Shown here: piece by piece, positions 1 to 31,107 of the stretch | Layout of the letters: the number at the start of each line of letters is the position of its first letter | Numbering within the stretch: position 1 is the first letter of the stretch | Assembly: GCA_050273025.1 (NCBI GenBank) | Contig: CP158635.1 | Coordinates: forward strand, 6,758,001-6,822,000 | Length of the DNA: 64,000 nucleotides | Source: Cenococcum geophilum | Taxonomy: Eukaryota | Direction of reading: 5' to 3' | The notes under the pieces: model-generated | The model's database searches: none | What the model was told of the DNA's origin: nothing | Seen by the model: only the letters and a program-made list of their open reading frames with translations | Translations under genes and position numbers: made by a program

Positions 1-1222
1 GCTTACTATCCGATATTAGAATAGTAGGGTTAAACCCAAGCTGCTCCTTATTTATCTAGAGAAATCCCAACATTACTAAGGTAAATTATAGTCCGTCTTT
101 ATTAATATTAAATAGTAATAATGCGATGCCTCCTACCTGGTTATACTCCTATAGCCGTATAATAGATCTATAGAGGGTAAAGCCTAGAACAAAGTGACGA
201 GTGTCCTAAGCGGCGAAGACTTCTCTTATATATTTTCCTAAATTAAACCATGCCTACAAAGCTATATTGGTGTTTAAATTACTTTTTAGCTCTTCTAGCA
301 TAAGTATATGCGACTAATAGCATTAAGAGCTTTTGCTAGCTATTAGATTATCTATAAAACCGATATCTAGCTTTCGCTTTGCTGTAGACCCTTATAAGGG
401 CTGCTCGGTATATACGATAAGCGTTCGTTATATCTTTAGGGCGGACCTATACTCCTCTATAAAGCCCAAAAATAATTTAATTAGGTTATTAAACCACTCT
501 AGGATATTAATCTGCTCTGCGCTTTTAGGCCAGTCACGCCAGCCGCCCTTAGCGTATAGTAGATTGTCCCCTTCCTTACATTTCTTAAAAACGGCGGCGC
601 TTACCTCTTTAAGACCTTTTACTTCCCTAAAGAATGCTTTATATAAGCCAGGAATCCCCATATAAAGAGAGCCTAGCTCCTCCTTTAGAATATAATCTAT
701 ATATTTCCTATATTTAGACGAGTTAGTAAAGCTGCTTATATTACGTAGATGTGGGGTTTATTAAATATAGAGTGGCAGCGGTTAGGGGGGAGGCGTGGAC
801 TCTATTATAGTGGTGATAGTATTACTCTAAACGTCCTTATCCGATTCGCGATTGATAACTATTTTTAAGAGAGGGGTGAACCGTTTGATATTAAAGTCAT
901 TAAAATTAACTAAAGGGAGGAGTTAGAGAAGGTTACTATAAAGAGTGCCGCGGCCAGCGCTAGACGGGAGTAGTTAAGCAGCGAGAAGGTTCTGTAATGC
1001 CAAAATAAGGTCGACTATAAGATTTTTAAGCCCTATGTGTGTTAGAGAGAACCTATAATAGATAAATTAACAATTACCTTTATAGCCTATCTGGCGTAAC
1101 AAGTCCGGAGAGCTAGGGATGCCTAGATCCTAATAAGTTAAGTTAAATAAATTATAAAAGCCATTCAGTCCTTCCCTAATAGGATTAGTTTTAATTATCT
1201 CTAATTTAGAGAGATTTGCTAT
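1..1222 (-). pseudogene. FunK1-type fungal protein kinase (Pkinase_fungal), N-terminal half, RIP-inactivated, runs off the window
   Basis: Minus-strand translation gives GIPGLYKAFF..GGWRDWPKSA..RKLDIGF..ELKSN..LGKYIREVFAA*DTRHFVLGFTL..GGIA..EQLGFNPTI, with multiple RIP stops. Confidence 0.85.
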
Positions 1223-8658: not shown

Positions 8659-8733
8659 GGGCCTTACGCCAATTACATTGCTTTAATTAAGTACGCGATA
8701 CTTAATTAAAGCAATATAATTGGCGTAAGGCTC
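8659..8733. repeat. Near-perfect 35-bp-arm hairpin
   Basis: gggccttacgccaattacattgctttaattaagta, a 5-nt loop, then tacttaattaaagcaatataattggcgtaaggctc. Confidence 0.9.
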
Positions 8734-8843
8734 TTCTAAGTTTTGGGGGCGCTAGCGACCTGCTAGGGAATTAAGAGCGGAGGGGAACTGCACTTAACTA
8801 CTCTTTTATCTTAATATAAATTATATAACTTATAACCCACTAT

Positions 8844-10925
8844 TATAGACTTTAGTATTGCAGTAGCCTTAAATCTTATCCGCAATGCTTTTAATAAGTA
8901 GCTTTAACCTTATCTCCCTAATATTATATATACTATTTAAAGGCTCCAGAAGCTTCCTATTAATACCTTTTAATATTTACCGCCTCTCTTAGAGAATAAA
9001 CGCGGCCACTATAATTCGCTCTACGCTCCTCTAGGGAGTAAGGATATCTAGCCTTCTCTAGGGAATTAGGATGTTGTTTAGCCTTTTCTAGGGAATAAAG
9101 ATAATGCTATCTAGTCTTCTCTAAGGAGTATCTAGCCTTCTCTAGGGAATAAAGATGTTATTAAGCCTTCTCTAGAGAGTGAGGATGTTTAGCCTTTTCT
9201 AGGGAATAAGGATAATGTTATCTAGCCTTCTCTAGGGAGTGTCTAGCCTTCTTTAAGGAATAAGGTTGCTTCTCTACCTCCCCTTTTACTTAAATATGCG
9301 AACCTATTTAACGCATTATTGGTAAACCTCTCTAAGATTAAGACATTCGTTAATATATCTATAGGGAAAGATCTAAAGGCTATTATTGGCGAACCAAAGT
9401 GGTTAAACGAATATCCCCTTATTAAGGATCTTATTACTACTAATAGTAATTTATTAAATAACGCTATTTTTCAAAAACTTCTTAGCTAATAGACGCTTGC
9501 GGATTCTTTTAAGAAATGGCAACTAAAGTCTATAGGTGCGTTAAGGATTAAAAGTTTAGTTAAAAGTCAAGCCGCTTCCGTAAAGGGAGTTAGCTATATT
9601 ATATTATTTGTAAGAAGTATAGGATGTTATAACGTTACTAAAGCGGCTTTAGCTATTAGATATAGAATTAAGCTTTATATTATATAAAGGCTTAAAGGGG
9701 CAGGGCTATTAGTTCTCTTAGCCTTTACCTATAACGCCTGCTAGAGATTAAATTTACCTAATATTAACGATTTTCTTATGGCTTTACGGCACCGGTCTTA
9801 TTTTATAATATTTAAAATTATATAAAAATGTTTAGTTTAGATAGAACAGTGTTAAGAGCTTTATTCTAGTTAGATACTTTCTCTTAGACCAACATATCTT
9901 AGTACTACCAACCCGCCCTAGCCGAGCCCGAAAAAGCGAATTTCCTCCCCTTATAAACGCCCCTATGTAGAAGTTGCTAAACCTAGGGATCCTATATCAG
10001 TGTATAATTACTAACGCGCAAATCTAATAATATTGCACCCTCCTTAGCTACTAATAACGGCCTTAATGAATAGCATATAGATATATAAGAGTAGTTATGC
10101 TTCTAAATAGCAGTATCTCTAATTTATTATAGGCCATGGAATATCTTCTCTATGATTTATTAAATAATATCCTTAAGCCTCTAAGCCGGCGGGCGAATCC
10201 CTTATACCACGCCTTAGTTAAAAACGCTTGTTATAAGATTTCCCTACCCCTTTTAATACCCGCGGCAACCTTACGTAAAGATACCTAAATATAAATAGCA
10301 TAGCGTGTTTAAATGGAAACCCTAGCAGCTCTAGTTTTATAGACGTTAGTAATAATAGTGAATAAATAAGCTATAATAAGGCGCAATAGGTATATAAAGA
10401 CTAAATTAACGGTAATACGCCACCGGCAATTAGAAATAGCGAATAGATAAGCTATAATAAGGCGTAATAGATGTACGGAGACTAAATTAACGGTAATATA
10501 CTACTAGGAATTGGTAACAGCGAATAAATAGGCTATAATAAGGCGCAATAGGTGTATAGAGACCAAATCGGTGGTAATACGCTACTGGCGATTAGTAATA
10601 GTGAATAGATAAGCTATAGCTCCGCGCAATGGGTATATAATAAGTCCCTTAATAGTGCGGTTGCTATAAGTTCTGCTTACAGGTGTTAGTGAATTTCTTC
10701 TAAAACTCTTATATTGTTATATACCCCAGTTTTAGGTTTTTAACGTGGTATAATAATGGTTTAATAATATCCCTTATTAAGTAGAACTAGCAGTTTAAGC
10801 TTAGCTAATAATTAGCACCGTAATTATTACACTAACGCTACCTCTACTCCCGTTCTATTCTACCTATTATAAACTAGCCTAGTAATAGCCCTACCTACTT
10901 TCTAAATACGGGATAGTATAACTAA
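8844..10925 (+). pseudogene. Orphan cargo gene with QPSPGNED-like repeats and 27-aa (81-bp) repeats
   Basis: The frame is continuous once RIP changes are reversed (DFSIAVALNLIRNAF..., ...GEPKWLNEYPL...). Tandem repeats lie at 9030-9260 and 10360-10640, with a probable intron near 9870-9920. Confidence 0.5.
10360..10640. repeat. 81-bp tandem repeat, ~3.5 copies
   Basis: Units beginning gaata(a/g)ata start at 10360, 10441, 10522 and 10603. Confidence 0.9.
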
Positions 10926-13544
10926 GCGGGACCTAGGAGTCCTAATAAGGGCTAAAAGCTAATATGCACACCACTAAATCGTTTAGATATTACATTAAAA
11001 TACGTCGTCCTATAAAATAGACTATTAGGCCTATATATAAAGAGTTTATATTAACTGCTCTAACTCCTAACTTTAGTAGTATTTCTGATATCTTTAACTT
11101 AAATTCCTTATTTACGTTAGCTGCTAGAGTTACTATACTAAAGTAAACCACGTTAAATATACTATTTTCGCAAGCTTACGCGCTTTATTACTTTCCGTAG
11201 TATCCGTTAAGGCGATAGTAGGTATAGTTTTAGTTAGCGTAGTCTTCTAGATCTTCTATATCGCCTCCTCTAGGCTAGATTATGTGAGGTCTGCGTGCGA
11301 CTTGTTGATTATAAATACTATATATATCCTATTCTGGTAATCCTTCGTTAGAGTTTTATACTTACTTATTTTTTGCGTTACTATATCCAATTTTACGAGC
11401 TCGCTGCGAGTAAAATTGTCTAAGTAGTAGGGCAGTTTAGAGGGGTAGGCTTATTAGCCTATTTATATTTCGCGTGCTAGGTATACTAATTTGCTAACGT
11501 GTATAGATATTAAAATGCTTAGCATTTCAAATAAGCCTTAAATATTTAATACCTTAACACTTAGGCTTTACCATTTTTATTAATAAGGATTTAGTAGTAA
11601 TGTTTTTAATGCCTTAAATATACCGCTAAAATAAGATTAATATATATAATGGCCGCTGTGCGGGCCGCTATATATATTAAACGCTTGGCATCTTATCCCG
11701 CGTGGATGTATTTATAGTGCCCTTCCTACCCTTTAATATATCTAGTGGCCCAGACTTCTTACCTAGCTATAATAAGGCCTATAAATGGTATATAGCACGC
11801 ACTATAACCTCTTAACAATTTTTATTAATTACTGCCCCCGCTCCTATCCACGATTATATAGCTATGCTTTTAGAACTAATAAGTACCATATTTAACGCTT
11901 TTTTCTTTCTAAGTTAGACTGTTTAAGCCCTTAGGAGTAAGGATAAAGTGCACTTTAATTCACTACCCGCTAAAACGTTTACTAACTAACCCAGACCTTT
12001 TATATTATACTACTACCGAGAAAATACCTATTCTTGTTAAATATACCTAGAATAGAAGAGTATTATATACTCTTTAAAATGTCCGAAACTAGCTATAATA
12101 AAATAGCTGGAGTTTTTCCTAACGCTTAGGGAAAAGAACAGTTTAAATTTATTAAAGTAGGTTATAAATCTAGGTAATTTCTAATAAATCTTAAGCTTTA
12201 TAGGTTTTAAAATGGATCGGTTTCCGCTATAATCTACTTACTAAACCTAAGTACGCTTAAGTCCTAATATATTTTCGTATTAGTAGGATTAAAAAGCAGT
12301 TATATACTCTATTAGAAGCAGTAGGGCTAATATAAGGCGGGGAGCAAATTATAAAAAATATAAACGTGGTAAAATTAAAGGTTAAATAGTTAAAGTTGCT
12401 AGAGGGGTCTCTTAGTAACTTAGAAAAGAGTAACATAGAGGAGGGTTTACGTGCTCTAGGCTTTAAGATATAGTTTAACCGTATAGAATATCCATAGTAT
12501 ATGTTATATATTTGGGAAAACCTGCTATTTAGCTACTAGATTATTAATTCTCGTTTTAAATAGCATTAATTTCTCCTATTTTACTTTCTTCTTACTCCCT
12601 ATATTTTTAGAATTAAAGTCTACTATACCCCTACCTTATTAGTGCTGCTAGCTGTCCGCTATACTTTAGCCCGTTACTAATACTACAGTTAGAAAACCTT
12701 CTTTAGGGAATTTATTTACTAGGGGAATTTATTTACCAAGGGAATTATTACAAAGTTTTTACATTTTCGGGTGCAGTTAAGAAGATAAATAGTAGAAAAG
12801 AAATCCTGTAATAAATAGAGCGTAAGATATAGGATAATAGAAATTGTAATACGAGGTATAGTATAGAAGAGGACCGGGATAAAAATAGGGATGTGTATAA
12901 GGACGTATATAGGGAGGACATAGTCGCCGGGATTAAGGCTTTAGGGATTAATTTAAAGAAGAATATATCTCTTTACTAGCAACTGTTCCTTCCATAAATA
13001 GTATAGTAAAGGCTATTATATAACGTTTTCGTATTTCCACGTATAATTATAGCGTACCAATTTACACCTCCCCCTATACTACGTAATTACACTTATAGCT
13101 AGCCAAGCTAGGCTTCTCTACTTATAATAGGTTAGCCTCCTATATTCTACAAGCATACTCGGTTTTACCCTTTACTAATCTTTTACTACCTATAGCAAGG
13201 CTAGAACAGGCGTCTTCTTATATTTATACCGTCTAGTAAGTCGTATTTAGGCCTACCTTCGTGTATTTCATGCCGTTTATAGCCTAATTTAAATCTACGT
13301 ACTTCCTCGTTGCTCTAGTAAGAACTGCCACGCAATTTAACCTTACTAACACGTATATACTGCCTCTGCTAGGGTTTTACTAATTAATATATAAATAGGC
13401 CTCTAAGACCTCTATAGACCTCTAAAGGCCTCTAATAACCTCTAAAGACCGGCAATAACTTACCTACTAAGGCAAGCAGTATATAACCCGCCCCTTCTAT
13501 ATCTTTAGTAATCTAATCGCTACTCTTAGGTACCTATTGTTGTA

Positions 13545-14234
13545 ATGGATACGTCTAATAGAAGCCAAAAGTCAGCCTATTAGGTTCCAAAGTTAGGAGA
13601 AAAGATTTCTAAAGAGGATAAAAAACGAGATATTACCTTTATAGGATGGGAAGAAGGCGATTTACGTAAAGCAAAAGTAAGTAATTACCTATATTATAAG
13701 TAGCAGGTCCCTAATATCTTAAAGATTTATAAGATTATCGGCATTCTATATACTTAACCTAATATTCACCGGGCTATAGGTCCGATATATAATATAATTA
13801 TTTAAATAACTTTAGTTGTGCCACATTACCGTAGTGGCAGATTAGTTATAGCGGAAATTAATTATAATGGAACATTAATGAGGTCTAATTGCTTTTCCGG
13901 CGATATATAGTTTATAGAAGGTAGAAAGGAAGCTTTAGAATAATTGGATAAAGAGGTAAAGAAACTTAATAATGCCAACTAGACTACTGCGCCTCCCTTT
14001 TTGGTTAGATTGGCGTACTTTACTACCCTAATGCTTGCGATAGCTTTAGTACTTCCGTATAGGGAATAGTTAAGTTTATATAGAGGAACTACGCTGCTTA
14101 AATTGCTTAATTTCGTTTAAAGAATATAAGATCTTATACGGCTCACATAATGGTCTAGCAATTTGCTATTATTCTATAACTAAGCCCAAAGCCCTTATAC
14201 CTTCACGTTCGCCTATACTTACAACCCCCACTAA
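13545..14234 (+). pseudogene. Small orphan gene, one intron
   Basis: ATG MDTSNRSQK..TFIGWEEGDLRKAK, then a GTAAGT..CTAAT..AG intron (~13677-13724), then a long frame broken only by RIP-type stops. Confidence 0.5.
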
Positions 14235-14860
14235 AATTAAACCCCCCTCTCTATGCTCTCTTCTCCCGGCCTTACTAAAATACCTAGTATAAATATACTT
14301 CTTTCGTAACAAAGATAGAAAGGCTATATAGAAGTAGTCTTTTAAAACCCAATACTTAATTTTTATAAACTGTATAAGCATAGCTAATCTTACGAGCTAG
14401 GTGATCGTGCGGGCTATATTAGTACATAGTTAAGAAAAAAGTAGAATAGTGTAATTGGCGGGCCGGTATACAGGAATATAATACTATTTAACTTTATATA
14501 ATATGGCTTGGAGGAGTGCAGAGCCTTAACCTAAGCTATAGAAACACGTTCTCTAACTAAGCCTCTATTATATAACCACTAACTGCTTCTAGGCGCTGCG
14601 GCCGCCGCATACCCCGCCACTTACCCTTTTTAGAACTTTAGAAGTTATACTAGTCCTTAATTAAGCGACTAACGTTTAAAGCTCTAACTAACTAGCTAAA
14701 TCTGTCATAGATTAGATAAAGCTAACGATGACTTCTTAATATATATATAGAGGCTCTAGAGCTATGTTTAATAAAGCAGAGTTTTTATTCTTAATCGTCC
14801 TATTTAACACCAAATTACTCCCTTAAATATTGCTCAAGACGCAGTCGAAACTAGAGAAAC

Positions 14861-15862
14861 ATGCCATTCAAAAATATTCCGTTTGGCTTAGCGCAGCTTA
14901 TAGATAGTAAGAAATATAGCGACTTAAAACTTATATACTAGGGGCTAGAGTTTAAAGTCTATAAAGCGATTATATGCACCTAATTTCCTATACTTACAGC
15001 TACCTATAATAGAGGCTTTTAGGTAAAAGCTAACTAAATATCTAGTAGAATTAACCCTAACTAACCAACTAACGGGTAGGAGGCGGCGACTAACATTATA
15101 AATATTAACGAGTTCGATTCCGGCACCGTTAAGAGGATAATCCAATTTATATATAAGAGAAACTATAAGAATGGCAAGGAGGAGCAAGGATCTAATATTA
15201 ACGACACTAATACCTTATCGCCATCTAAACTAGATAATAGCGGTGGCGATAATAAAGATACAACGATACGGCCGACGACGGCCTATATTACACTTTATTA
15301 CGTCTATATTAATGCAATTGCCGATTACTATAATATACTATAGCTAAAAGAGCTTATAAATATAAAAATCTAATATATTCTAGGAACTAGCTAGTCCGTA
15401 AACGGGTTTCCTAATATTGTTAAGGATGTCTTTAGCCTAATAGGCAACTTAGTATTATATAATATAATCACCTTAATAGCGGCTAAGCATATTAAAGAGC
15501 TTGTTAAACTTAGGGACTTTATAGAGCTAGACATTATAAGCGATTTCGCTATTGGCATTATACGGACAGCGATTACCGCATCTAAGGATATAGAGGAAAA
15601 TTTTATACTAAAACTTTAAGCTGTCTAATCTCAGCTATAATAAATAGAATTACTGCTTTAATCCGCCGAGGCGAGGTATATCGCGGCTGAGCGCAAAAGC
15701 AAAAACATTAATAACTGTCTTAATACCCTCTACACGACCAAGACCTATTATAATATTGGTTGTAGAGCCGAGTTTATATATTATATTAAGGACAGCAGTC
15801 ATCTATCCGACCCTAATTACCCTTATATACTTCGTTGTAAAAGGTGCGAGCGTTATATATAA
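14861..15862 (+). pseudogene. BTB/POZ-domain protein
   Basis: SKKYSDLKLIY*GLEFKVYKAIICT*FPIL..RGF*, an intron at 15023-15079, then EAATNII..VKRIIQFIY..YVYINAIADYYNIL*LK and a C-terminal Cys cluster (YILRCKRC). Confidence 0.85.
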
Positions 15863-16004
15863 GTAAAGATACATAGCTTAGGAGATCGGCTTAGGTAGGA
15901 AGTCATTATATCGTTTAGGTTGATCTAAGAAATTCGAATATATATCTCGTCCATAGTCGATCCGTTAGATATTATATAGCAACTATATTATCCATTTCCC
16001 ATTA

Positions 16005-16115
16005 GCCTCCCCTTACCTTACCCCTTACCCCTTACCTCTTACCCCTCACCCCACCCTTCATCTCATCCTTTACCTCACCCTTACCTTTACCCTTACCTAT
16101 TACCCCTCGCCCCCT
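16005..16115. repeat. Degenerate (CCCCTYA/CCCTYA)n pyrimidine-rich microsatellite
   Basis: Directly visible in the sequence. Confidence 0.8.
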
Positions 16116-16139
16116 AGACGAATTACAAAATCCTAGTTA

Positions 16140-17184
16140 TTATATCGTTATTAAAGACTTGTGGCAGTACCTGGAGCGCGAGGAAGAAGGTAAACTACTG
16201 CGTAAGATGTCGGAGGAGGGAGTGGTTAACGTGGCTAGGTACTATTACTATGAGACTGTTCGCATAAATGGACAAAATAATAATATCTACAATATCTGTA
16301 AGGGGCTAGATATTATAAAAGCGATAAAATATAAGCCAGAAGGCTTAATAATGCCTCTAAGACCGGCTGGAGTGTAAATTAGTATAAGAAAAGGCCGAAG
16401 TTCTAGTAGAAAGAGATCTTCTAGCTATACTAATGTTCTATTACCGCCTAGCAAGCGTATATATTTGGGTTCTCTACCTAAAGGCGGAAAGCGCCTTATA
16501 ACCCTAAATTGAGTATATTAACGCGTTATTACTAGGGACTACGGAAAGCCTCTTTACAAGGCAAGCTCTTGGGCTGTAATGCTTACTGTATTAGAGGGTG
16601 GCATTAAAGGATATAAGTCTTTATATACGCGGGCTAGTATTATCTAATATAATATTTTAATAGGCAATCTTATAATAAACGAGGAAGACGACAATCCTTC
16701 TTGGCTAGTATTCTTAATCGACTTTAATCTTGCGATTAAGGAGTAGCGAGAAGGGCCTTTAGGAGCGCGGGGTAAGACCGGCATAAGAGCGTTTATAGCG
16801 ATTAGAGTGCTCCTAGGCGAGATATATTTAGCTTAGTATAATTTTAAGTTGTTTTTTTAGGTGCTATTCTGGATATATATTTACTATAATGGACCTAATA
16901 GGAAAGGTAACGTTGTTAATAGGTTTAATAAGTAGAATTCTATAGATATGGAAGAGCTAGCTAAGATAAAGAAAGGAGAAGTGGATGATAAAGGGGATTT
17001 TCTTAAGGGTGTAGGTGATAACTTTTTGCCGTACTATCAGCTACTAATCCCTTAGGTTAATAGATTGCGGAAGGTAGTATTTCTAGGCGGTGGGAGGCGA
17101 AAGGGAAATAATAAAAAACTTCCTTCTTAAATAAAGGAGGTGCTTTAGGAAGCAAGGAAGGATCTAAAGGTGTTAGTAGAGTAG
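16140..17184 (+). pseudogene. FunK1-type fungal protein kinase, C-terminal half only
   Basis: VIKDLWQYLEREEEGKLL..NVARYYY..RDYGKPLYKASS..LIDFNLAI..GARGKTGIRAFIAIRVLLGE..VNRLRKVVF. No N-terminal half is present upstream. Confidence 0.85.
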
Positions 17185-17187
17185 ATA

Positions 17188-17473
17188 GAATAATATTTTA
17201 TTGCTCTTCTACCGTATAAGTGAAGTTTTGCAGAGATTTGGGCGGCTAAGGCTAGGTAGCAGCCTTAGTTAAAACGTATGTGAAATAGCATAGGGTAAGT
17301 CGCCTGGGCTAAATAAACCCAGGAAAGAATAATATTTTATTTTCCTGTGTTCTTCTACCGCACGGGTTAAAGTTTTACGGGGATTTGGGCGGCTAAGGCT
17401 AGGCAGTAGCCTTGGTTAAAATATATATAAAATAGCATAGGGCGAGTTGCCTAGGCTGAATAAACCTAGGAAA
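17188..17473. repeat. ~140-bp direct tandem duplication with internal stem-loops
   Basis: Two copies of gaataatattttatt...gggcggctaaggctagg..agcctt..gcct(g/a)ggct..aaacc(c/t)aggaaa. Confidence 0.9.
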
Positions 17474-17809
17474 GCAGATAACCTAATTGTTTACGAAGAT
17501 TTAAAGGAGGACAAAGCGAATCTGCTATGGCCTTTATGTCTTTATAGCTAGAACTAAACTTATTAGCCTTCTTATTATAATAAAACGCTATTATTCTTAC
17601 TATAGATATGTAAAGCAGAACTAGAACGTGTAATAGTAGGACGCCTTACGCTTTAAATAGAGTATACTTCTTTTGTAATAAAGATAGAAATGCTATCTAA
17701 AATTAGTCTTTAAAACTTAATGCTTGATTTTATAAACTATCCGAGCATGGCTTTTAAAGTATAGAACGCTATTTAATATTATATGGCTTTCCTTGTACAC
17801 TGGATGGCT

Positions 17810-18200
17810 GTAGGGAATTTTTGCATCTAATAAGATAACGCCTAGTATAGCCCGCGATTTCACAATCTCTGCCCGCCTGAAGTTAATTATTATCGCCTGG
17901 CTAATCTTTATATTCTAAAGCATATTATAGGGTATCGCATCTTGGTGTAATACTCCTAGCTAATATACGGCCTAAATTAAGTGCTTAACCTGTTCAGTTA
18001 GGTATTGCCTATTATTGCCGTTAATACGTTAAGAGATAAACTTGCCCCTAAAACTAAGGAACCTTATATAAATAATCTTTATAATACCGTTATAGAAATA
18101 CGGACGGCTAAATTAATATTTCCTAGATGTACCGGTATATGGATCCCTTAAATTAGACGGAGGCGCTTGTAAATGGTGGCCTCCTGCTTTAGGTGGCTGG
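17810..18200 (-). pseudogene. Protein-kinase-like domain fragment of a fungal accessory kinase family
   Basis: HLKQEATIYKRLRLI*GIHIPVHLGNINL..YNGII..FLSF..LGVLHQDAIPYNML*N..IINFRRAEIV, with HxD-xxxxN and DF-like motifs. Confidence 0.7.
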
Positions 18201-18290
18201 GTAAGAAGAGGCGAGCTAGGTAATATCTGTAAACTTTAGGAATCTTGTTAGGAACGTAATTAAGAATATTGGACGGACAGTCCGTGGGTG

Positions 18291-20897
18291 TTAATGAGAT
18301 ACTCTATGTATATTATATGCATGTCTCTTAAAATGCATTATGCCCTCTATTTACGTGGAATATTTAAGATGGCAACATTTAAACTCTTTTTAATAGTTGG
18401 GTAGTCAAAAGTGGGTATCTATATGCTTCTTTAGGACGTCTTTTCGCGGTATATGGCGCATCCGTTTTTCGTATAAGAACTCGTTATTGCCTATATAAAT
18501 GAGGCATACTAGGTAGGGAAGCTCTATAGAATATAACTAAATAGTCTTAGCTTTAGCGGCATTTAAAGTGCTAAGCTCTTATTAAATAGTCCCGCAATCT
18601 TTATTATTTAGCGACTCTTTCTTTAGGGATATATGACCGGGAGTTTAGTAATTTAAGGTACTCTTAAGACTAATATCCTTTCGCTTTCGCACGTAAGATA
18701 TCTTCTTACCTTTAAAGATAATAAAGTCTATTTTCTTTTATTTTAAAGGTTTATATTAAGCCGTTTCTTATTAATGACGCAGTTAAGCTAGGTTTTTAAT
18801 GAACTTAACTTAGGCTTTTTTATTTTTAAAAGGTGTAAAGAGCATTCTAGTAATGGTAGCCCGCTCCTGAAGTTTAAATTCCACCCTTAGTAGTGTTAAT
18901 ACCTTAGTTAGGCCCTTCCTACTAAGCTACCTGGCTATCTCGATCGTGTTGATTAAGTTATGGAATTTGCAAATAGCGGTTATTAATTGTTCCCTCTGTA
19001 ATCTTTAATACGTTATGCCAATCTTCTGCTTGGTCTCTTTATATTACTGGTATAATTTAGTGCCTTTAGCCTTAGTAATGGGGTAGAGGCCTTCGCCGTA
19101 GATACAGTTCTTATATTCTTCTTGTTCGTTACGAAGTGCTTTAAGCTTAGGGTTGTTGCGGACTTCTTCTAGCTGGTCATTATTAAGCTCTATAGGCGCT
19201 CGTCGATCTTATAACAGCCCTATTCTCGCGATAGATTTAATAAGGAGATCTTATAAAGGACTTCCAAAATAGATGCTCTGGTAATTGCGTGCAATATGCG
19301 TTGGTATATAATACCTCTTATATATACTACTAAGATGGCCTATAGTCTGGTTCCGCTCTTTCGGAGTGACAGTATCTATCTATATAATTAATATATAACT
19401 AGGTCTAGAGGTAATTATTGAGCGGACTTACCGTTAATGTTTTTACCTAAAGCCCGTCGCAGCTGGTATAGCTCTAGTGCCTCCTTAAACCTAGTAACAA
19501 GCCCTAAGCGTACGAATATGTCACGGTATTTGGCGTATAGAAAGGCCTTTTCTTTTATAATATTGCCACCCCTAGTTATATAGCTGACGTCGCAGAAGAA
19601 TGGCTGATCTAGTACTTTATTCTTCTATTTAATATATAGCACGTCGCGGTGCGCTAGTATCTTAAGGTTGAAGATGTCTTAAACACTTATAAAGTTATCT
19701 AGGAATGCGTCTTAACTAATGCCGACGGCTAAGATATACAAAACAATATAGAATGTAGGAAGGTCTTTAAAACGGAAGGTAAATTTCTTTCTATAGATTT
19801 ATAGTTAGTAGGATATATTATTTATACACAGTATAAAGCTTACGGTTTACTATTCTTTTCTTTATTCTTAATGTGTTTTAGGTTTACATTTACTATAATT
19901 ATGCTCTTATTAGAGCGTTTCTTGCTACAAATAACTATAACGTTAATATTCTTAAACCAGACGGCTTTATTGCTGCCTTTAGCACTAGCGCTTTCCACTA
20001 GAGCGCCTGGTCTTATAGCTGTAGCTGCGCTAAGTAGGAAAAGAAGTAAAATTTGGACTCTAATAAAGCTATGGAGTGGCTTAGTATTGTTAATCCAGAG
20101 AGCGTGAAGGATAGTATAAAGGTCTTAGACGAATATAGCGTACTTTTCCTTTGCCGACTTATTAAGCCTAAGGCTTAGGATCTACTTCTACAGCTATTAG
20201 TCTGCCTTAAAGGAGGGGTGGGAACTTATATTGTAAACATTATTAAGGATATTACTGTCCATTTTATGGCGTATAAGGTCTATATAGTACATGCTAATTC
20301 GTTTCTAATAGCTCCGCATTACGCTTTCCTTCTTAATTTAAAAATGTTTCTTCTGCTAGCGGAGATATGCTTTAAATACCTTTAGGGCGTATTTACGCAG
20401 CTAGTTATCTAGGGTTTTTTAGGTTTTCTTTTTAATCTTTAGGCAGTACCTAGTTTGTAGTAATTAGAGGGTATAATAACGAGTTAGTGGGAATTTTATA
20501 ATTTACCTCTCCTAAATTTCGCCTTCCCTCTTTTATAGTTTCTTAGTATAAGGAGTATGGTTCGGTTTCGCGGGTCCCTCCTCTTCTAATTTAGTAATGT
20601 CTTTTAGTATTTCCTTAGCTTTAGAGTCCAATTTTATATCTAATCCCATATCTAACTCTATATCTAATTTCGCATCTAATTCCGCATCTAATTCTGTATC
20701 TGGTTCCGTGTCTAGTTCTCTAGAATCTAAATCTATACTATCTTTTAAACGAATATATGTATCTAGATTGGTGTCTGTGTTTGAGTCTGGACTTTAGAGT
20801 CGTAAATTTGAGTTTTAATAAACGGCGGCGGCGTAGGGCGCTCCTCTCCTCTCTGTCCTGTGGGCCGGAGCAGCTACTTCGATAGGTGTACTACTAT
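18291..20897 (-). pseudogene. DUF3435 tyrosine recombinase (Starship 'captain'), RIP-inactivated, ~4 introns
   Basis: An acidic N-terminus is followed by SAATAIRPGALVES (~19990-20030), LELYQLRRALGKNIN (~19435-19480), ERNQTIGHLSSIYKRYY (~19305-19360), LL*DRRAPIEL and a C-terminal Cys/His zinc-finger-like end. GT-AG introns include 20450-20506 and 19791-19843. The start ATG has been RIP-mutated to ATA. Confidence 0.9.
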
Positions 20898-21836
20898 TTT
20901 AGCGACAGCGAGTTTGCTAAATAGGTAAGGTGAGTATTATAGATGAGGATTAAATTGCCAGAGAGGAAGTGGACCGAGGATAGTAAAGGAAGAGAGAGAG
21001 GAAGTGGAATGAGGGTGGTAAAGGGAGATAGTGTAGGGACAGGGCGAGCAGGCTATTCCTTTAAGTAGACGCTGGCCTTTCCACCTGGGCTGTGCCGTTA
21101 TTGAATTAACGTAAGCGCTGACGAGCTTTGCTAAAGCTTGTGTCCCGTTTCTAACCCTCTAGGATAATAGGGCGGGACATGATAGGGATGGGAAGTGCTT
21201 AAGTGAATAGAGCTTCTTTAAAGCGGTGATGTGACAGGGTCTAAGTGAGGTAAGAACGCCGCCAAAAGCGGCGGCTAACAACCTCCAAAAACAGATGTAA
21301 TCCCACTACCACATGTATTTATATAGGGATAATAATATACTATAAGGAACAAAAGAATGTTTAATTAAGAGTTTTGCGTTTTATTATAATAACGCATACT
21401 AAGTTTATAAGGACGCTAAGTATAGCGCAAGTTATTAGCTATAAGAGCCTAAGTTAAAAGGACTTTAGGGTATAAAGAGCTAAATAAAGAACTAGATTAG
21501 GACTAAGACGGCATAGCTAGCCAATAGTTAGTGGAGAAGTTTCTTATACACTAGTTCTACTAAGCTATAGGATCTAAAGATTAAGATAATTAGACTATAA
21601 GTAGCGATAATAAGGTAATAAAGGCAGCTTACTAGAAGTATATAAACCTTAAGGACGTAATAATAGAGGTAGAGGTTAAATCCACTATAGAGAAAGGATT
21701 AATAATGGAGATTAAAACTCTATTAGATATAATGTTTATTGCTTTACAAGACATAAGAAAAGTAGGATAGTAAGCTACTTTAGCACTTAATAAAGGCGAA
21801 AGGCTAAAGGCTTAAGATTTTTAAGAAAAGATAAAA

Positions 21837-24800
21837 TGTAACGGAGCCTTGTAGTAAGAACTACGGTAAACTTATTAATAGGCTAGGTATATAGGTATTA
21901 CAAGTAAGTTAACAACGTAATAATAACTGGTAGAGTGGTTGCCTAACAGATTAACTCCAATTATATTCTAAGAATTGCTATAAGGAAGGAACTATCTAGG
22001 TAGGGACTAAGGGTCCTTAAATATACAACCGTGCTCTTATAAAATCCTCCTTATACGTAATATACGTAAGGTACGTAAGGTACGCAAGTTCCTCTTATTC
22101 CTTATGTTTAATACATAGCACGTCATATAACCTTAGTTACTATTCCTTATTATATAGTTCTATGGGTTTTATTTTAGACTGTGCTTATATTAACTAACTA
22201 GCTTCTTCTAACTTTTCTCTAAGTAGTTATAATATTATACTTAAAGCGTCCATAACACTATCTCCCTTCTCTTTATCTTTGTCCTTAAAGATACCTAGCA
22301 TCTCTAAGTCGTTTACTAGAGGTATAATATCCGTCTAATTAATTTAGTTAATATTATTACTTATAATACCTAAAGCACCTTCTTCTTCTTTATACGCGTA
22401 ACGTTATACCCATACTATTACTATAATATTATTGCTTAATAAAATAATGCTATCTCCATATTCTCGTTATTTAAAAGAGAGGTTAGTTTATATCGCGCTA
22501 GCGAGTCCTTTATCTTAATAACCTTCTTTTTATTTAGAGTGCACTAAAGTAAATATTTAATTGTCTTATAATGTTCGCTCTACTTCTAACGCTAAGTATA
22601 CGCGTCCTATAACCCTTAATAGTCTTTAAGTTCCCTAAGTAATTTATTATAGGGTTTTATATTTAATTTGCTGCTATAAAGCTTAATAGTAACCTAGTAT
22701 AGGCCCTTGCGAAGTTTAAGTGTTCTTAAGATGCGGAACAAAAGGCCCTAAATACTCGTATTGCGGCGTCTACCTATCTACTTCGTCTTAAGAAAGTTTG
22801 TAAAAAGGTCTGTTTTAAGGAGTAGAAGTTTATAAAATAAGGTCTATAGGAACTTAGTAATAAAAGAGCGGATCCTCTTTTAATAGAGAAGGAAATAACT
22901 CTAAGTAGTTCGGCAGTCGCTCTTCCTAGGTCCCCTTTAGGTAACTTATTCTTTGGCGATTCTTCTTTATTAATATTACCTAACCTTTTCTCTTCTAATA
23001 CTCCTATACCTTTCCTATAGCGTTTTTTAGGTTCTCTAGTAGTTCCTAGGTAGTCTTATTATAGCCTATCCACTTTACTTTGTACTATATTTTATTGTCT
23101 ATATCCTTATAACTAACGATCTTTAAAACTTGCTATTTATCTTCCTCTTATCCTCTATACATATCTACTTTATAAACTAGTGGCTTAATATTCCTATATA
23201 CTAGCTCTAGCATCGCGATGTGCTATATAGGGTAGATCTTTATCCTAGCTAGTAGGTTTAACTTATATATAACCAATAAAATTTTCTATATAATTTTAAA
23301 AGGTCCTAGTCTAATATGGTCTAACTTCTTACTTAGTTATTAACTCTTAAAATTTTTATATAGTAGCCATACTTTATCTCCCTCCTTAAGATCTAGTCCC
23401 TTAGATCTCTTAGCATTATAGTACTTTTTTATTCTTTACTATACCACTTTAGCTATTTCCATAAGGTCTATATAAAGATTTATTAAACTCTTTATTCTTT
23501 CTTTAGCTATACTACTTATCTTCTTTACTTAATATGGCGATAATAAGGTCCTTAGCTTATATCCATAATTCGCCTTAAATAGTAACGTGCCCATTCCTTC
23601 TTATAGTGTTATATTATATATAAACTATATAATTAGTAATAATAATACCTAATTATTCTATACATAATTAATATAATACCTTAGATATTATTCTAGTGTC
23701 TAGTTTAATCTTTCTATAGATAATATACGGTAGAAGTTACTGCTTAAACTCCTTACTCTACTAAAAATACTTCCTAGAATACTACTATAAATCTTAAATC
23801 TCTATCCAATATAATTTTACTTAGTACTTTATATCTTATAAACACTTCTTTAATATAAATTCTAGCAATATCTTCCGCTAATATTTCCTCTAAGCATGCT
23901 ATAAAGTATCCCCACTTTATAAGCTTATTTATTATTACTAAGATTATATTATAATCTTATCTGGTAATAGGGTCTCTTAACCTTAGCAACTTAATAATAA
24001 AATCCCATAATATAACCTCCTATAGTCTCTCTGGTATTTTAATAGGTTATAGCTCTCTATATGGCTTATACCTTATTAGTTTATTTCTTTAGCAATCTAA
24101 ATATTCTTTTATAACTTACCTAGCTAGTCCCTAGATTCTATTAATAATATACTTCTCTTAAAGTCTTAATACTAAGCCTATAGCTCTGTTATATCCTTAA
24201 GTTAGTCCTTTATAAAACAATTTAATAAACTCCTTTATAATAAATCTTAGTATATATATTACTTCTTAATTTTCATACTACTCTAAGTCTAGATCCTCTG
24301 TTTATATGTCTAAGATTTTTTATATTTAATTACTTTCTAATAATTTATAGATCTTCTCTTCTTATATTATTATAATCTTCGGATAATTATATCTAATCCT
24401 CCTATTTATATCCTTTTATAATAAAGCCCCTAATAGCTTTTTATTATTTTATAGTTTAGCTTTTCTACTTAGAGCGTCCGCTTGTATATTCTCTATACCC
24501 TTAGTATACTAAATCTTAAAATAGTATTCTATAAGCATCTCTGCCTATCTAACCTATCTTTAATTAAGTTCCTTTATTATTAGGAATCCTGTTAGGTTCT
24601 TATAATCTATCTTAACTATAAATAATTTCTTTATACCTTGTAAGAATGCTCTCTATTCCTTTAGTGCTGTAACTATACCTAATAACTCCTTATTATAGAT
24701 GTTATAGTTTAACTTTAGTAGTATTATCTTTTAACTATAATATGCCACTAGGTGCTATCTATCTTAATATTTTTATATAAAGTATGCCCCTAGTATATAG

Positions 24801-27800
24801 TCTAATGCATTTATTTCTATAACTGTTTCTAGTCATAGTTAATAAATCTTAAGAACTAGCTCCTAGGTGAATAATTCTTTAACCTTTTTAAATAGCTCTT
24901 ATTATTCCTTTCCCCATATCTATATTTTTTCTTTCTTTATTAATCGCGTAAATAGTTTAATATTCTTTAACCATTAAGCTATAAACCTTCTACAGTAATT
25001 ACAGAACCCTAGAAATAACCTTAACTGTGTTATATTTTCTAGTTCTTACCAATTTACTATAGCCTTAATCTTCTTTAAATCTATACTAAGTTGGCCTAGT
25101 TTAATAATAAATCTAACGAAATCTATCTTCCTAGTAAAGAATTCGTATTTCTTAATTGCTACTAGTATCTGTTCTTCTTATAGTCTCTTTAAAACCCATT
25201 TAACGTGTTCTCTATATTTTCCCTTACTTATTAAGTAAATAATAATAATATTAAGGTATACCATAACAAATTTATCCAAGTATTCTCTTAATATATTATT
25301 AATACGCTTCTAAAACGTTACTGGTGCGTTTATAAGCCCGAATTATATAACTAATAGTTTATATAGTCCTTCCTTTAACCTAAAGGCTGCCTTTTATTCG
25401 TTGCCTTCCTTAATTCTAATCTAATGGTACGCCTATCTTAGATCTATCTTTATAAAGATTTACGCATTACCTATTCTATCTTAGATTTCGCTAATTAAGG
25501 GTAAAGAATACCTATCCTTCCTAGTGATGCTGTTTAACTATCTATAGTTAATACACAGCCTTAGTTTTTCATTCTTCTTTAGTATAAACAGTACTAGATA
25601 TCCCGCTAATAACTGCAATAGTCTAATATATCCCTTTTATAAGTTTTCCTAGATAAACTCTTTTAATACTCTACCTTCTTCTTTAGTAAGCTTATAGATT
25701 AAAAAGAACCTTAGACTTATTCCTAGTTCTAATTCTATTTTATAGTTCTATGCTATATACTCTAATAGCTTTTTACTCTCTAGTAACTATAGTTTCTTAC
25801 CGTACTTATAGTATCTCTTTAGTATATAACTTAAGCCTTGCTTAGTCTCTTTATATATTACTCTAACCTAGTACTATACCAACTTAGTTTATTATCGCAT
25901 CTTACGTTATTATATATCTCTAATATCAACTTAACCAGTAATTTAATTAATCTTTGGATTGTATTCCTAATACTGCCTTATTATTCCCTAATAGTAATAT
26001 ATTAAAAGACATTTCAATTTATCTCCCTTTAATGGTTATCTAAATTAGTCCTGTTTTAAGATTAATAATACCTCCTCTATAGGCTATTGGATCTCCTAAG
26101 ATTGTTACTAATAGGTAAGAATACTCCTTCTATCTATATAGTAACCCTATTCTTTTAACTACTGCTAGCAAGATATAGTTCCTTATTACTCCACTATCTA
26201 TTAATGCCTTAAACTGTTAATCTTACCATTTAACTTATAAATTTAGGTATTGTCCTTAAATTCCTTTAAGGGTCTAAGACTCTACCACTAGCTCCCTCTG
26301 GTCCTATAGGCCTCTACTTTTCCTAACTAGTGGCTGCTAGATCCTGTTTATACTTAGTCTAACTTAGGCTAATACTTAGTTTATTTCTTTTCTTTAATAT
26401 GCTATAGATAAGTATTTTCTAGATATTCCCACCATTGTTATCTATCTAGGCATTCTTCCGTAAGGAATCTTCCTAGTTAAAGTATTAAGTCCCTTTATTC
26501 TTAAACTTCTATAGGGTGCTAACTATATATATATTTAGCGTTTCTATACTTTACCTTATCTGGCGCCTAATATATCCTTACTAAGTATTTCTAGTTCTTA
26601 TCTTTTAGTGCTCTATATATATTGCACGCGTTATCTATATATATAATCTATACTAACGTATAATGCGCCTAGTATCTTAGGTTAACTCTTGGCTTATCTT
26701 TGTTCTTAAGTTTAAACTTTTCTTGTATTAATCTAAGCGTTATAACTTCACTCGCAGGTACTAAGATTCGCCTCTTGCTTCTCTAGTCCTCTAATTGCTC
26801 CTTTAGATCTTTTAATGTTATAATTAAGGCTCCCTTAATGTGATTTATCGCCTTTTCCGTAATTAGGTAGTTTTAGATAACTCTTTTATCTAGCCATATA
26901 TAGAAATCTTCCCACTTATTATTGTGCCTTTATTTATACCACTTTTAATACAGCTACTGGAGTATATATAGCTTGTCCATAAGGAAGTATCTTTTTATTA
27001 CTATATTATAACAGCCCTTTATATGTTATTCCTCGAACCTAGTTAAAATCCCTAAATCCTCTTCGTTTTCTAGTTTAATAAGCTACTTAGCTTTTAGTGT
27101 GCCTATTCTCAGCCTATTAGTAATTCTCTATACTAGTGCTCTGTCCTTTATACGTCCTAATATACTAGATCTCTTATCTAGTTTCTGTTCTTGCTATGCG
27201 ATAATTTTTGCTCTAAACTCGTCTATAGTTTCTTTTAGTTTACGTCTTACGGATTAATCCTTAAAGTCTTTTTACTTCTTAATCTTAATATTAACTTTTT
27301 AATCTTTAGGCTAAATACTACGTTCCCCTAGTAAGTCTTCTAGGTCTATATACCTATCTCCTAGTTAAATTGCTATTTATGCTATAGATTCTCTAATCTA
27401 TAAAGAAGCCCCTTGCCTCTTACTTATGGGTGTCCTGATTCGTACCCCAAATTCTTAATCCCTTAGATTCTTTAATCCCGAGCTTGCTTCTAACTTAAGC
27501 TTAGCTCTAGCCTTAATCCAATTAGGCTTACTTAGTGTTCTTATCTTATCTTAAGAGTCTTAAATCTTACTTATCTTATCTTAAGAGTCTTATGCCTTTA
27601 GAAAACTTTGTCCTAAGCTTATTCGTATATTGCTAAACTAAGCTATTACTCTCTCTTATTGGTTCTTGTCCGTTGTGGGTCCTTAAGTATACCTTATCTC
27701 GTCTTAAAAATCTTAGTCGTCTTATATCTTATTTTAAGAATCTTAAGCCTTTGGCCTTTTGCCTTTATTACGTGGTAAGCTAGCACTAGCAGTTATTTGC

Positions 27801-29814
27801 TTGCTTAATTGTCTCTAAATATTACTCCTTCCGTCTTATAAAGCGATGGATGCCGTATCTAATAGTGTTATAATACCTATTACTAAACCTTGCTCTATAG
27901 CGGTCTTAGTCTTTACTTCTATTATATTATTAAGGTTTAGATACCCCTAGTTAGTTCCTTTACTATCCTTATTACTGTTAATTAATAAGTACTCTAACTC
28001 TATTGTTATTGTTGCTAATTATTATCCGTATATTACTATAATATCTTAATCTAGCTTACAGAGTCGATCTTATTCTTTATCTAACTCTTTAGTTTCTTTA
28101 AGTCCTTTTAACTTTAGCTCCTATAGCCAATAGCTTATACTATACTTAGCGTCTTTATAAATTTGGCATGCGTTATTATAACAAAATGTAAAACTTCTAA
28201 TTAAATATTCTTTTATTCCTTATAGCGTACTATTATCCCTCTATACGTATATATCGCATACTACTAGTCTAGTTCCCTTTACTATATAATAACTCTAACC
28301 ACTTCTATAGTCTCTAGTAAAATAACCCTATTTTCCGTAATTTATATAAGCTCTGTTTTTAAACCATTGCTTTTATTATAGAGTCCGCTTAAATATCTTC
28401 TGCTACTAAGATCCTTAGTTTAGCCTATGCTCCCTAGTCCTATAATTACTTAATCCTTAACCTCTAGGTTTCTATAGTTTCTTACTCCATCTCTTATAGG
28501 TTTCTTTAGTACCACTTAGGTCTATTAGCTTTGCGCCATACCATAGTTTCTAACTTAGCTTTAGTTATTACGTGCTCTACGTCTTATATAACTATAGAAC
28601 TTTATCCTAACCCTTCTTAGTCTATTCCCTTTAGTAGATCCTATTATTAATCTTTATCGCTTAATTTATTAGTTCCTTTAGGGTATCCGCATCTTCTATT
28701 AGAATAATTACGTCCTAGACTTTAGCCTTAAGTCCTTGCTTATACTATGCTATAAGCGCCCTATTATTCCACTTAACTTATATTACTAGCGTTTAGAACT
28801 ATATTATATACTTAATTGCTAAGGTTCGTTATATAATGTCTTAGAGTTTTTTTTTTACTATAGTCGTTACCTTTAAGTCTCTAAACATTTGTATAAGTCG
28901 TTCTACAAATCCGTTCTAGCTTAAAAACATAACCCGTACTTCTTGGTTTATTATTATTATTTTATTTACTTATATCTCTATAAGGTAAGGCTTAAACCAT
29001 TTAAGCGCTCTTCTTAATAAAAACAATCCTGCGTATGCTACTTAATCCATAGTTATTGCTAGCTTTACTCCCTCTTATATAACCTTAAAGTGCATTTGCG
29101 TAAGGAATCCTTTAAGCTTTAATCTCTCTCCTAAGAATCTTTTAATTGATAGTAGCTTAACCTTTACTACGCCTATTCCATTAATCCTATTTTTAAGTAC
29201 TATATTATCTCCTATTAACTAGTTAACTATTGCTTATAATTGTTTTACTGTCATAGGTTGTTATAAGTTAGTGTCTGCTATATTAGTATCGTTACCTAAT
29301 CTTAACATAGTTGCCGCCGTTAATGGCGTCGTAGTGGCTGCTTTTAGTGGCATGTTATTTAACTTATTAAAACTATAACCGTGGTAGTAATTGTATAACG
29401 GAGCCTTATAGTAAGAACTACGGTGGACTCGTTAATGGGCTAGGTATATAGGTATTACAAGTAAGTTAATAATATAATAATAACTGGTAGAGTGGTTGCC
29501 TAATAGATTAACTCTAATTATATTCTGAGAATTACTATAAGGAAGGAACTATCTAGGTAGGAACTAAGGGTCCTTAAATACACAACCGTGCTCCTATAAA
29601 ATCCTCCTTATACGTGATATACGTAAGGTACGTAAGGTACGCGAGTTCCTCTCGTTCCTTATATTTAATACGTAGCACGTTATATAACCTCGGTTACTAT
29701 TCCTCGTCATATGGTTCCACGGGTTCCATTCTGGACCGTGCTTGTATTAACCAACTAGCTTCTTCCAACTCTTCTCCAAGTAGTCGTAACATTGTACTTA
29801 AAGCGTCCGTAACA
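21837..29814 (-). mobile_element. Gypsy B: full-length Ty3/Gypsy chromovirus, 421-bp LTRs (21837-22257, 29394-29814), TSD TAAAA
   Basis: TG..CA LTRs with a 5-bp TSD and a PPT next to 22258. The gag ATG is at 29353. RT (PFGL, VYL[D]D-derived), RNase H, integrase and chromodomain occur in Gypsy order. Confidence 0.95.
22400..22990 (+). pseudogene. Antisense ORF in the Gypsy B 3' region with a Cys6 (Zn2Cys6-like) motif
   Basis: MLSPYSRYLKERLVYIALAS...SFYLECTKVNI*LSYNV de-RIPs to C-x2-C-x6-C-x12-C-x2-C-x7-C. A homologous antisense ORF lies in Gypsy A at ~50160-50680. Confidence 0.6.
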
Positions 29815-31107
29815 TAAAAGAAGCTTAAGATTCCTAAAACGAGATAAGATAAGCTTAAGGACCTATAATAAATAAAAATTAATAGAGTAGAGTAACGGCT
29901 TAGTTTAAAGATAAATTAATAAGTATAGGATAAAGGTTTTTAGGGTACTAAGATTCTTAAGACAAGATAAGGGCACTATAAATACCTAAATAGACCAAGG
30001 CAGGAGCGTAACTTAAGAAAGAAGTAAGCTTAGGATTAGAAGCACCTATACTAGGTAAATAAAATATTTAGCTTTAGAGTTAAATAGTTAATACTAGAAT
30101 TACAAAATTTAAGAATTTAAAGGATTTAATAGCTAGATATAAACTAGGAGAAGACTAAAAAAGAGTTAAGAATTAAATTAAAGCGTGGTAAAAACAGTAA
30201 GGATATTACAGACCAATAATACTAGGTAAGCTAAAAATAGCCTTAAGGAAGGTTATTAATAGGCCTAAGGTAGGCACGCTAAGAGTAAAATAGCTTAAAA
30301 AACTAGAATAAGAAGAGAACTTAGGAGTTTTAACTAGATTTAAAGAATAGTATATAAAGGGCTATTATAAAGCAGTAATAATAAGATATTTCCTTATAGA
30401 TAGATTATATACGCTTATAGAGCTATACTAAAAGTAGTATAGGCAGCGATATAATAATAGTTAGGAAGATTTTTACTTATAGCTAAACTAAAGAGTTATC
30501 TAAGACTAAGCAATTATAGAAAGGCGTATAAGTTATATTAAGGGAGCATTAATTATAACATTTAAAAACCTAGAAGAAAGATTAGAGGACTAAAGTTAAG
30601 AAAGATAGATTTTAGTACCTATAAATAAGAGATTAACGTTTAGATTAGCTAGATAAAGGTTTAAACTTAAAAGTAAAAATAAGCTAAGAGTTAACCTAAA
30701 ATACCTAGCATATTATATATTAGCATAGATTATATATATAGATAATATATATAATATACACAAAAGCCTATTAAAAAAAGTACCTAATTAGGATATATTA
30801 GGCGCTAAATAAGCAATAATATAGGAATACTAAGTATATATATAGCTAGTATTTAATAGAAGTTTAAAAGTTAGATAACTTAATACTTTAACTAAAAAGA
30901 TTCCTTATAAAAGAATATTTAAATAGATAATAGTAGTAAAAGTGCCTAAAGAATATATATCTATAGTATATTAAGGATAAGAAGCGAACTAGGTATTAGC
31001 TAAAGAATAAGCTAAGTATATAAGGATTAAGTAGCTAATAGTTAGGAAAAGTAAAGGCCTATAAAACTAGAGGGAGCTAATAATAGAGTATTAAACCCTT
31101 AAAGGAA

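Follow-up and report, generated by a model that had tools for sequence, protein, structure and literature searches.

A probable dead 5' module of a Serenity-like Starship transposon, degraded by repeat-induced point mutation, in Cenococcum geophilum

Starships transfer large gene blocks, among them virulence genes such as ToxA, both within fungi and from one fungus to another, and the fungal Cryptons (CryptonF) are small, multi-copy tyrosine-recombinase elements. The DUF3435 tyrosine recombinases of Starships, the captains, form a clade apart from the Crypton recombinases (PMC9156397), and CryptonF is the outgroup in PMC11162782. Families of Starship tyrosine recombinases (YRs) have median identities of 35% within and 26% between families, and fam04 is the Serenity family (PMC11162782, Table 1). 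Sanctuary from Bipolaris sorokiniana is placed in the Serenity family (PMC12257634), and its direct repeats have the consensus ATWHCT at the 5' side and ATACCT at the 3' side (PMC12506042). For the Serenity family, the site and mode of insertion could not be defined from the small number of known clean insertions, since its members are hidden in transposon islands (PMC11162782; PMC12257634). Here, we analyzed a stretch of 64,000 nucleotides from Cenococcum geophilum (assembly GCA_050273025.1, contig CP158635.1, positions 6,758,001 to 6,822,000), which is called the window below and is numbered from its first base. A Starship-superfamily transposon whose captain is most Serenity-like has probably left its 5' module in the window, as a dead copy degraded by repeat-induced point mutation (RIP). 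What is new here is a dead member of a known captain kind together with its 11 junctions.

The gene at 18291..20793 on the minus strand is a DUF3435 tyrosine-recombinase (captain) pseudogene with two introns, which was inactivated by RIP. An initial annotation of the sequence had proposed a Starship captain at this place, described as a multi-intron gene with RPGAL, YQLRR, and GH..Y..YY motifs that is hidden from the open reading frame track by RIP stops, and all of these points were borne out. The minus strand of 18.0-21.5 kb was translated with stop codons as X, and the Pfam search with this piece gave three collinear matches to DUF3435 (PF11917), which together cover positions 2-394 of the 418 profile positions (Table 1). 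In a tblastn analysis with the intact 815-amino acid (aa) protein P0016 from Zopfia rhizophila, residues 85-815 aligned to 20793..19852, 19789..19433, and 19370..18294 of the window, and the C-terminal end of the window gene reads "...VSH-stop" as in P0016. Both introns are canonical and were placed by the frame changes between the tblastn pieces and by reading of the splice signals. The motifs AIRPGALVES, LELYQLRRALGKNIN, and IGHLSSIYKRYYIP, which represent the three types named above, were read directly in the translation. When scored against P0016, the window captain carries 35 in-frame stops. The true start of the captain is probably located at 20.8-20.9 kb. An ATG that is kept in six other copies of the gene is ATA at the matching place in the window. 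Direct reading of the C-terminus revealed two Cys2-His2-like spacings as in the relatives, for which Pfam reported DUF3435 as the sole domain. The N-terminal region (20538-20763, minus strand) harbors an acidic repeat (ELDTEPDTELDAELDAKLD...), which is likewise present in the relatives, and the first exon is 36 bp shorter in the window and in metagenome locus L003 than in the other copies. The whole window is AT-rich, with a GC content of 24-43% per kb, and the frame survey did not yield long open reading frames anywhere in it. In every 2-kb bin the TpA/ApT ratio is high (1.47-2.0) and the (CA+TG)/(AC+GT) ratio is low (0.21-0.68), and thus RIP has acted on the window.

Upstream of the captain, the junction marks a genuine, site-specific end of the element, from which the captain is transcribed inward as its first gene. 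The initial annotation had placed an element terminus at a sharp junction near the gene, which agrees with the junction that we located at window 21321 (+/-3), ~420-530 bp upstream of the likely captain start. Metagenome contigs were scanned with a RIP-tolerant pattern built from window 21264-21306, which led to the identification of 10 loci, 9 of them from one metagenome; with a stricter pattern, in which all A and T were fixed, no metagenome loci were found. All 11 copies (the window and the 10 metagenome loci) are alike up to ...ATGTATTTA and pass into 11 unrelated flanks beyond this point. The junction is regarded as a true element end because the copies agree to one base and their flanks all differ, yet carry a motif. 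In this motif, +4 is A in 11/11, +5 is G in 10/11, +8 is A in 11/11, and +9 is T in 9/11 flanks, with a flank background of 13.5% G (27% GC). As read by eye on the element strand, the flank hexamer fits the Sanctuary consensus ATWHCT exactly in 6 of the 11 flanks, with one mismatch in 4 (including the window, where it is ATCCCT), and with two mismatches in 1; ATACCT itself is present in 3 flanks. The terminal nine bases of the element also align to the uninterrupted Gypsy copy described below (ATATACGTA), and the crossover point can therefore be placed only to within a few bases. Three of the 10 metagenome loci (L001, L002, and L005) have flanks that open straight into long terminal repeat (LTR) retroelement sequence also found in the window, which fits the published placement of Serenity elements in islands of transposable elements (PMC11162782). 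When the terminal 24-40 nt were used to look for an inverted copy, as expected for a terminal inverted repeat, with transitions tolerated, just the termini themselves and chance-level matches were returned. Among these, a 16-base purine/pyrimidine match inside the element (17625-17640) was rejected as a terminal inverted repeat, since it is at chance level. The GC-rich hairpin in the 5' leader has for the most part survived RIP in the other copies and could be a protein-binding site.

On the other side of the junction lies a nest of retrotransposons. The element cut a RIP-mutated Gypsy retrotransposon (Gypsy B). Gypsy B is broken exactly at the element end, and its paralogue, Gypsy A, runs uninterrupted through the insertion site. 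Gypsy A has LTRs of 419 bp that are 89% identical and encodes the Pfam domains RVT_1, RT_RNaseH, and SH3_Tf2-1 at ~25585..23205. Gypsy B is a diverged copy of Gypsy A in opposite orientation and is interrupted by further LTR elements. The initial ~1.57 kb of Gypsy B, with the 5' LTR and the leader, is lacking, and the homology to Gypsy A starts at 21313; blastn with Gypsy A did not find the missing 1.57 kb in window 1-21.3 kb. Contigs from sequencing run X6 that match right of 21320 have loose ends at this position and run leftward as Gypsy sequence. Three more long direct-repeat pairs with 85-90% identity are present at 31120-37243, 38163-45511, and 53570-59541 (spacings of 5947, 7147, and 5684 bp, respectively), which look like LTR pairs of retroelements in or beside Gypsy B.

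With the best captain piece as the query, 5.8 billion proteins were searched by a word index, which returned three proteins, all from Dothideomycetes and all with PF11917. These are P0016 from Zopfia rhizophila (zoprhi1_547808), P0017 from Dendryphion nanum (800 aa, dennan1_543970), and P0018 from Pyrenochaeta sp. DS3sAY3a (756 aa, pyrsp.2_639770). In tblastn against the window, nearly the full length of each protein aligned collinearly with 41-60% identity. P0016 and P0018 are contained in the DUF3435 tree of Gluck-Thaler et al. 2022 (PMC9156397), where their neighbors are Dothideomycete sequences, several of which are tagged as Starship-like candidates. P0018 occupies the end of the gene series in the Starship-like region "pyrsp.2|candidate|h29", which contains DUF3723, patatin-like (PLP), and ferric-reductase (FRE) genes within ~33 kb (PMC9156397, Table S13). 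In Table S4 of Gluck-Thaler and Vogan 2024 (PMC11162782), pyrsp.1_639770 and dennan1_543970 are filed under fam04, to which both P0017 and P0018 are thus assigned. Two of the three nearest intact relatives are therefore catalogued as Serenity, and the similarity to these proteins suggests that the captain is most like the Serenity family of Starship YRs. The gene has the DUF3435 tyrosine-recombinase domain of the Starship superfamily, and the strength of this match as well as the catalogued Starship YRs as nearest relatives set it apart from the Crypton recombinases, which lie outside the DUF3435 clade in published trees (PMC9156397).

The element occupies at least 11 distinct insertion sites (the window and the 10 metagenome loci). 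In the alignment of ten copies, 982 columns vary by transitions only, compared to 48 columns with a transversion. The window differs from the other copies by 318-387 transitions and by 2-8 transversions (31 transversions for L009). Transitions exceed transversions by ~50-120 to 1. Since the differences are almost all transitions, the copies were nearly identical before RIP. Among the C/T-variable sites, 271 of 499 have A as the next base, and the captain has 27-46 stops per copy in the 10 copies that are long enough to score. Transition-only divergence, the CpA-to-TpA bias, and both dinucleotide ratios characterize the sequence as a RIP-mutated repeat. Contigs of four runs were aligned to window 6000-22300, whereby X1, X5, and X6 gave thousands of diverged contigs, again with differences that are almost all transitions; run X21, with 409 contigs, gave almost no cover, which is not evidence of absence. 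In X1, the summed depth over the captain is 400-940, compared to ~37-56 for exact single contigs, which suggests ~10-20 captain copies, whereby a summed depth is not a copy number. The multi-copy claim rests on the 11 distinct sites and not on depth.

The initial annotation had also suggested ~18 kb of accessory genes behind the captain, and this claim was not supported. In blastn comparisons with the window, 7 of the 10 metagenome copies align from 21321-21339 down to 17487/17489 with 89-90% identity. The alignment of L003 stops at 18181 and that of L009 at 18292 (breaks at ~3.1-3.2 kb and ~3.0 kb, respectively), whereas L002 is too short to be scored for element extent. The window copy thus agrees with its relatives over 3.87 kb only, to 17487, whereas the seven loci are ~90% alike among themselves over the full 6.06 kb examined without reaching a boundary. 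For at least another 2.2 kb they have a common continuation, which the window lacks save for a 92-bp piece, and the window sequence behind the captain is present in 0 of the 10 other copies. Instead, a high-copy repeat block of ~3.1 kb adjoins the truncated element end. This block contains a RIP-mutated FunK1 relic at 16141-16875 (plus strand; Pfam Pkinase_fungal, E 1e-41), and a second RIP-mutated kinase relic is located at window 370..8 (minus strand; Pkinase_fungal, E 1e-19). The summed depth in X1 is 3080-5760 over the kinase block, which is the highest value of the non-Gypsy part, compared to 400-940 over the captain and 400-1640 around the block. L010 likewise has this block, but in its flank and thus not within the element. 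There are no open frames in window 1-18 kb, and besides the two kinase relics the Pfam search gave no match at E up to 5 in window 1-17.4 kb. To search for companion genes, all six frames were translated through their stops and scanned with Pfam, both for window 1-29.7 kb and for the 3 kb that follow the captain in L004. In window 1-29.7 kb, the matches besides the captain were Pkinase_fungal (twice) and Gypsy domains only, and in the 3 kb from L004 no protein domain was found. Thus, neither large size nor cargo nor companion genes, as known from Starships, were found in the scanned sequence. Since none of the relatives matches the window beyond 17487, the kinase block also lies outside the element in L010, and companion genes were not found, window 1-17.4 kb is not supported as cargo of this element. 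What remains of the proposed Starship architecture is a RIP-killed captain as the first gene inside a true end.

The kinase block shows some peculiarities of its own. It is unusual to find a kinase gene within a high-copy repeat, and the block is bracketed by direct repeats of ~110 bp that are ~80% alike (14269-14385 and 17643-17752). In every copy, the right repeat belongs to the element itself (element positions ~3570-3693), and therefore the left repeat is considered a stray fragment of another copy or a rearrangement trace. The block was also considered as an LTR-like unit, but the ~110-bp repeats and a single X1 contig that connects 14251 with 17663 (side 27 nt) were too weak for this assignment. 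The coordinates of all features are given in Table 1.

Table 1. Coordinates of the captain pseudogene, the element, and adjoining repeats in the 64-kb window
Feature	Position in window	Strand	Description
Stray element fragment	14294..14385	-	92 bp, corresponds to element positions 3604-3693; far side of kinase block
Kinase repeat block	14386..17486	+	High-copy, ~3.1 kb, adjoins truncated element end; FunK1 relic 16141-16875
Retained 5' module	17487..21324	-	Element positions 1 to ~3869: terminus, ~0.5 kb leader, captain, ~0.8 kb downstream
Captain pseudogene	18291..20793	-	Exons ~20793..19844, 19790..19432, 19379..18294; stop 18293..18291
DUF3435 match 1	~20127..19738	-	Profile 2-114, E 7e-7
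DUF3435 match 2	19738..19430	-	Profile 107-210, E 4e-10
DUF3435 match 3	19373..18834	-	Profile 213-394, E 5e-21
Intron 1	19791..19843	-	53 nt, GTAAGC...CTAAC...TAG
Intron 2	19380..19431	-	52 nt, GTAAGT...TAG
Hairpin	21258..21275		GCCGCC-AAAAGC-GGCGGC, GC-rich, in 5' leader ~50 bp inside element end
Element 5' terminus	21313..21321	-	Last nine bases common to 11 copies, ATGTATTTA on + strand
Target-side flank	21322..21331	-	Three semi-conserved bases, then hexamer 21325-21330, ATCCCT on element strand
Gypsy B, first surviving piece	21322..21836	+	LTR retrotransposon cut by the element; blastn with Gypsy A
Gypsy A	21839..29814	-	Complete RIP-mutated Ty3/Gypsy, nested in Gypsy B; LTRs 21839-22257 and 29396-29814
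Gypsy B, further pieces	29810-31108, 37243-38133, 45505-47950, 50260-50852		3' LTR 52071-52279

Overall, a dead 5' module of a Starship-superfamily transposon with a Serenity-like captain is the likely explanation for these data. An active element would move by its captain through excision and site-specific integration, and would insert next to an ATWHCT-like hexamer in AT-rich, often transposon-derived DNA, with recombination at a short core; we infer this mechanism by analogy to published work on the Hephaestus and Sanctuary captains. As for the order of events, the window copy would have landed in the Gypsy retrotransposon with its end at 21321-21324, and the family would have spread to at least 11 sites as nearly identical copies. 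RIP (C-to-T, G-to-A) would then have struck every copy, and the window copy may either have been broken at 17487 or carry a different interior, with other RIP-mutated repeats beyond. Several points weigh against this explanation. Neither window 1-29.7 kb nor the 3 kb following the L004 captain yielded DUF3723, FRE, PLP, or NLR genes. An orthologous empty site was not seen, so that the paralogous Gypsy copy alone serves as a proxy. The hexamer is offset by 3 nt upstream of the common element end, whereas that of Sanctuary is described as immediately upstream (PMC12506042), and the 3' end of the family, and hence the second direct repeat, is found neither in the window nor in the 6.06 kb examined per locus. 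Furthermore, the assignment to the Serenity family was deduced from similarity to two catalogued proteins and not from a tree, and at least 11 copies are a high number for a Starship, which would better suit a small conventional transposon.

The copy number leads to the idea that the element is compact (~6-15 kb), consists of the captain and little else, and multiplied like an ordinary transposon, combining a Crypton-style habit with a Starship enzyme. The copies at the 11 or more sites, which differ almost only by RIP transitions, point to a burst in which near-identical copies arose, many diverged contigs from three runs of cultured strains cover the captain, and neither a domain in the 3 kb behind the captain of L004 nor companion genes in the scanned sequence were found. 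However, the similarity of seven copies persists at 6.06 kb from the end, the ~33-kb region with DUF3723, PLP, and FRE genes is headed by the close relative P0018, and known Serenity elements measure 47-196 kb (PMC12506042), so that a compact element is possible, if doubtful. A burst of a Serenity-type captain family, with at least 11 near-identical copies (possibly more by depth), each beside an ATWHCT-like hexamer that forms part of a ~10-base motif in transposon DNA mutated by RIP, and with an element that is maybe a compact, cargo-poor "mini-Starship", has to be regarded as similarly tentative. Alternatively, the element might run leftward through window 1-17.4 kb and beyond, its interior being its own cargo, unlike that of the seven metagenome copies. 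Size variants of Sanctuary agree only in their first 3.8 kb, including the captain, and in their last 3.1 kb (PMC12506042), which resembles the common stretch of 3.87 kb of the window copy, and the absence of the 1.57 kb of Gypsy B from 1-21.3 kb is as expected for an insertion of more than 21 kb. On the other hand, none of the 10 other copies has the window sequence behind the captain, and the adjoining kinase block is several-fold deeper than the captain and occurs outside the element in L010. The stray 92-bp element piece beyond this block points to a rearrangement, two other copies break elsewhere (~3.0 and 3.2 kb), and the two kinase relics are the sole recognizable genes, and we consider own cargo in this region to be unlikely. 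Finally, it might be that the junction at ~21.3 kb does not constitute an element end at all but a breakpoint that was left by a chance deletion or recombination among dead transposons, with the gene as a stray fragment. The entire window indeed consists of nested, rearranged, RIP-mutated repeats, but 10 other copies stop at the same base with 10 different flanks that share a motif, which makes a chance breakpoint highly improbable.

In addition, several features were observed elsewhere in the window. In the left part, short tandem repeats are located at 9020-9268 (period ~111 bp) and at 10350-10640 (period ~81 bp), where no protein was recognizable. The GC-richest stretch of the left part contains a tandem array (5283-5840) of ~30 units of 17 bp with 63-77% identity, and a 186-bp match to this array is present in the flank of L010. 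A low-stop frame at 800-3400 on the minus strand gave nothing recognizable on inspection of its translation, for which no database search was made. At 61916-62333 there is a near-perfect inverted repeat of 205 nt (94% complementary) with an 8-nt spacer. Beside it lies a GC-rich motif of 40-68 nt (GGCAAGTTGCC...), which is likewise present at the LTR-like repeats of 31120 and 37067.

The window copy itself is a fossil, and its present role is limited to adding to an AT-rich, RIP-mutated region. The 11 base-exact 5' junctions are now given for a family that was said to lack them, which is of modest value, and the flank motif, which largely agrees with the Sanctuary direct repeat, makes a target preference of the Serenity family testable. 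If the compact burst described above were true, the motif would represent the first target-site logo for the Serenity family, and it would mean that Starship recombinases are able to propagate small elements to high copy number and thereby help to build AT-rich isochores.

In comparison to known systems, the element shares a high copy number with the Cryptons, but differs from them by its strong DUF3435 match. Like the Starships Phoenix and Prometheus, which insert mostly into AT-rich sequence and often into transposons of both classes (PMC11162782), it is located in such DNA, and its relatives adjoin the Phoenix and Defiant captains in the 2022 tree listing (PMC9156397). Unlike for Phoenix and Prometheus, the nearest catalogued relatives belong to fam04 and not to fam01 or fam05, and the Phoenix direct repeat, given as TTTACA or TTTAC (PMC9156397; PMC12257634), does not match the flank motif found here. 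The "pyrsp.2|candidate|h29" region of Pyrenochaeta sp. DS3sAY3a is similar in that its end gene, P0018, is 41-60% identical to the window captain over residues 5-756, but the DUF3723, patatin-like, and ferric-reductase genes listed there were not found in window 1-29.7 kb. With regard to Sanctuary, the window copy differs in being dead through RIP, in the 3-base distance of the hexamer from the common end, and in the number of insertions, at least 11 compared to the few copies per genome reported for Sanctuary. There is also no ToxA-type or other recognizable cargo in the scanned sequence. What the element has in common with Sanctuary and Serenity (family 4, clade 1) is a DUF3435 captain that is the first gene and is transcribed inward. 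As described for Serenity, it sits in AT-rich DNA that is rich in transposable elements, and as described for Sanctuary in Bipolaris sorokiniana (PMC12506042), it has a hexamer by its 5' end that largely fits ATWHCT/ATACCT and a conserved front module of ~3.8 kb.

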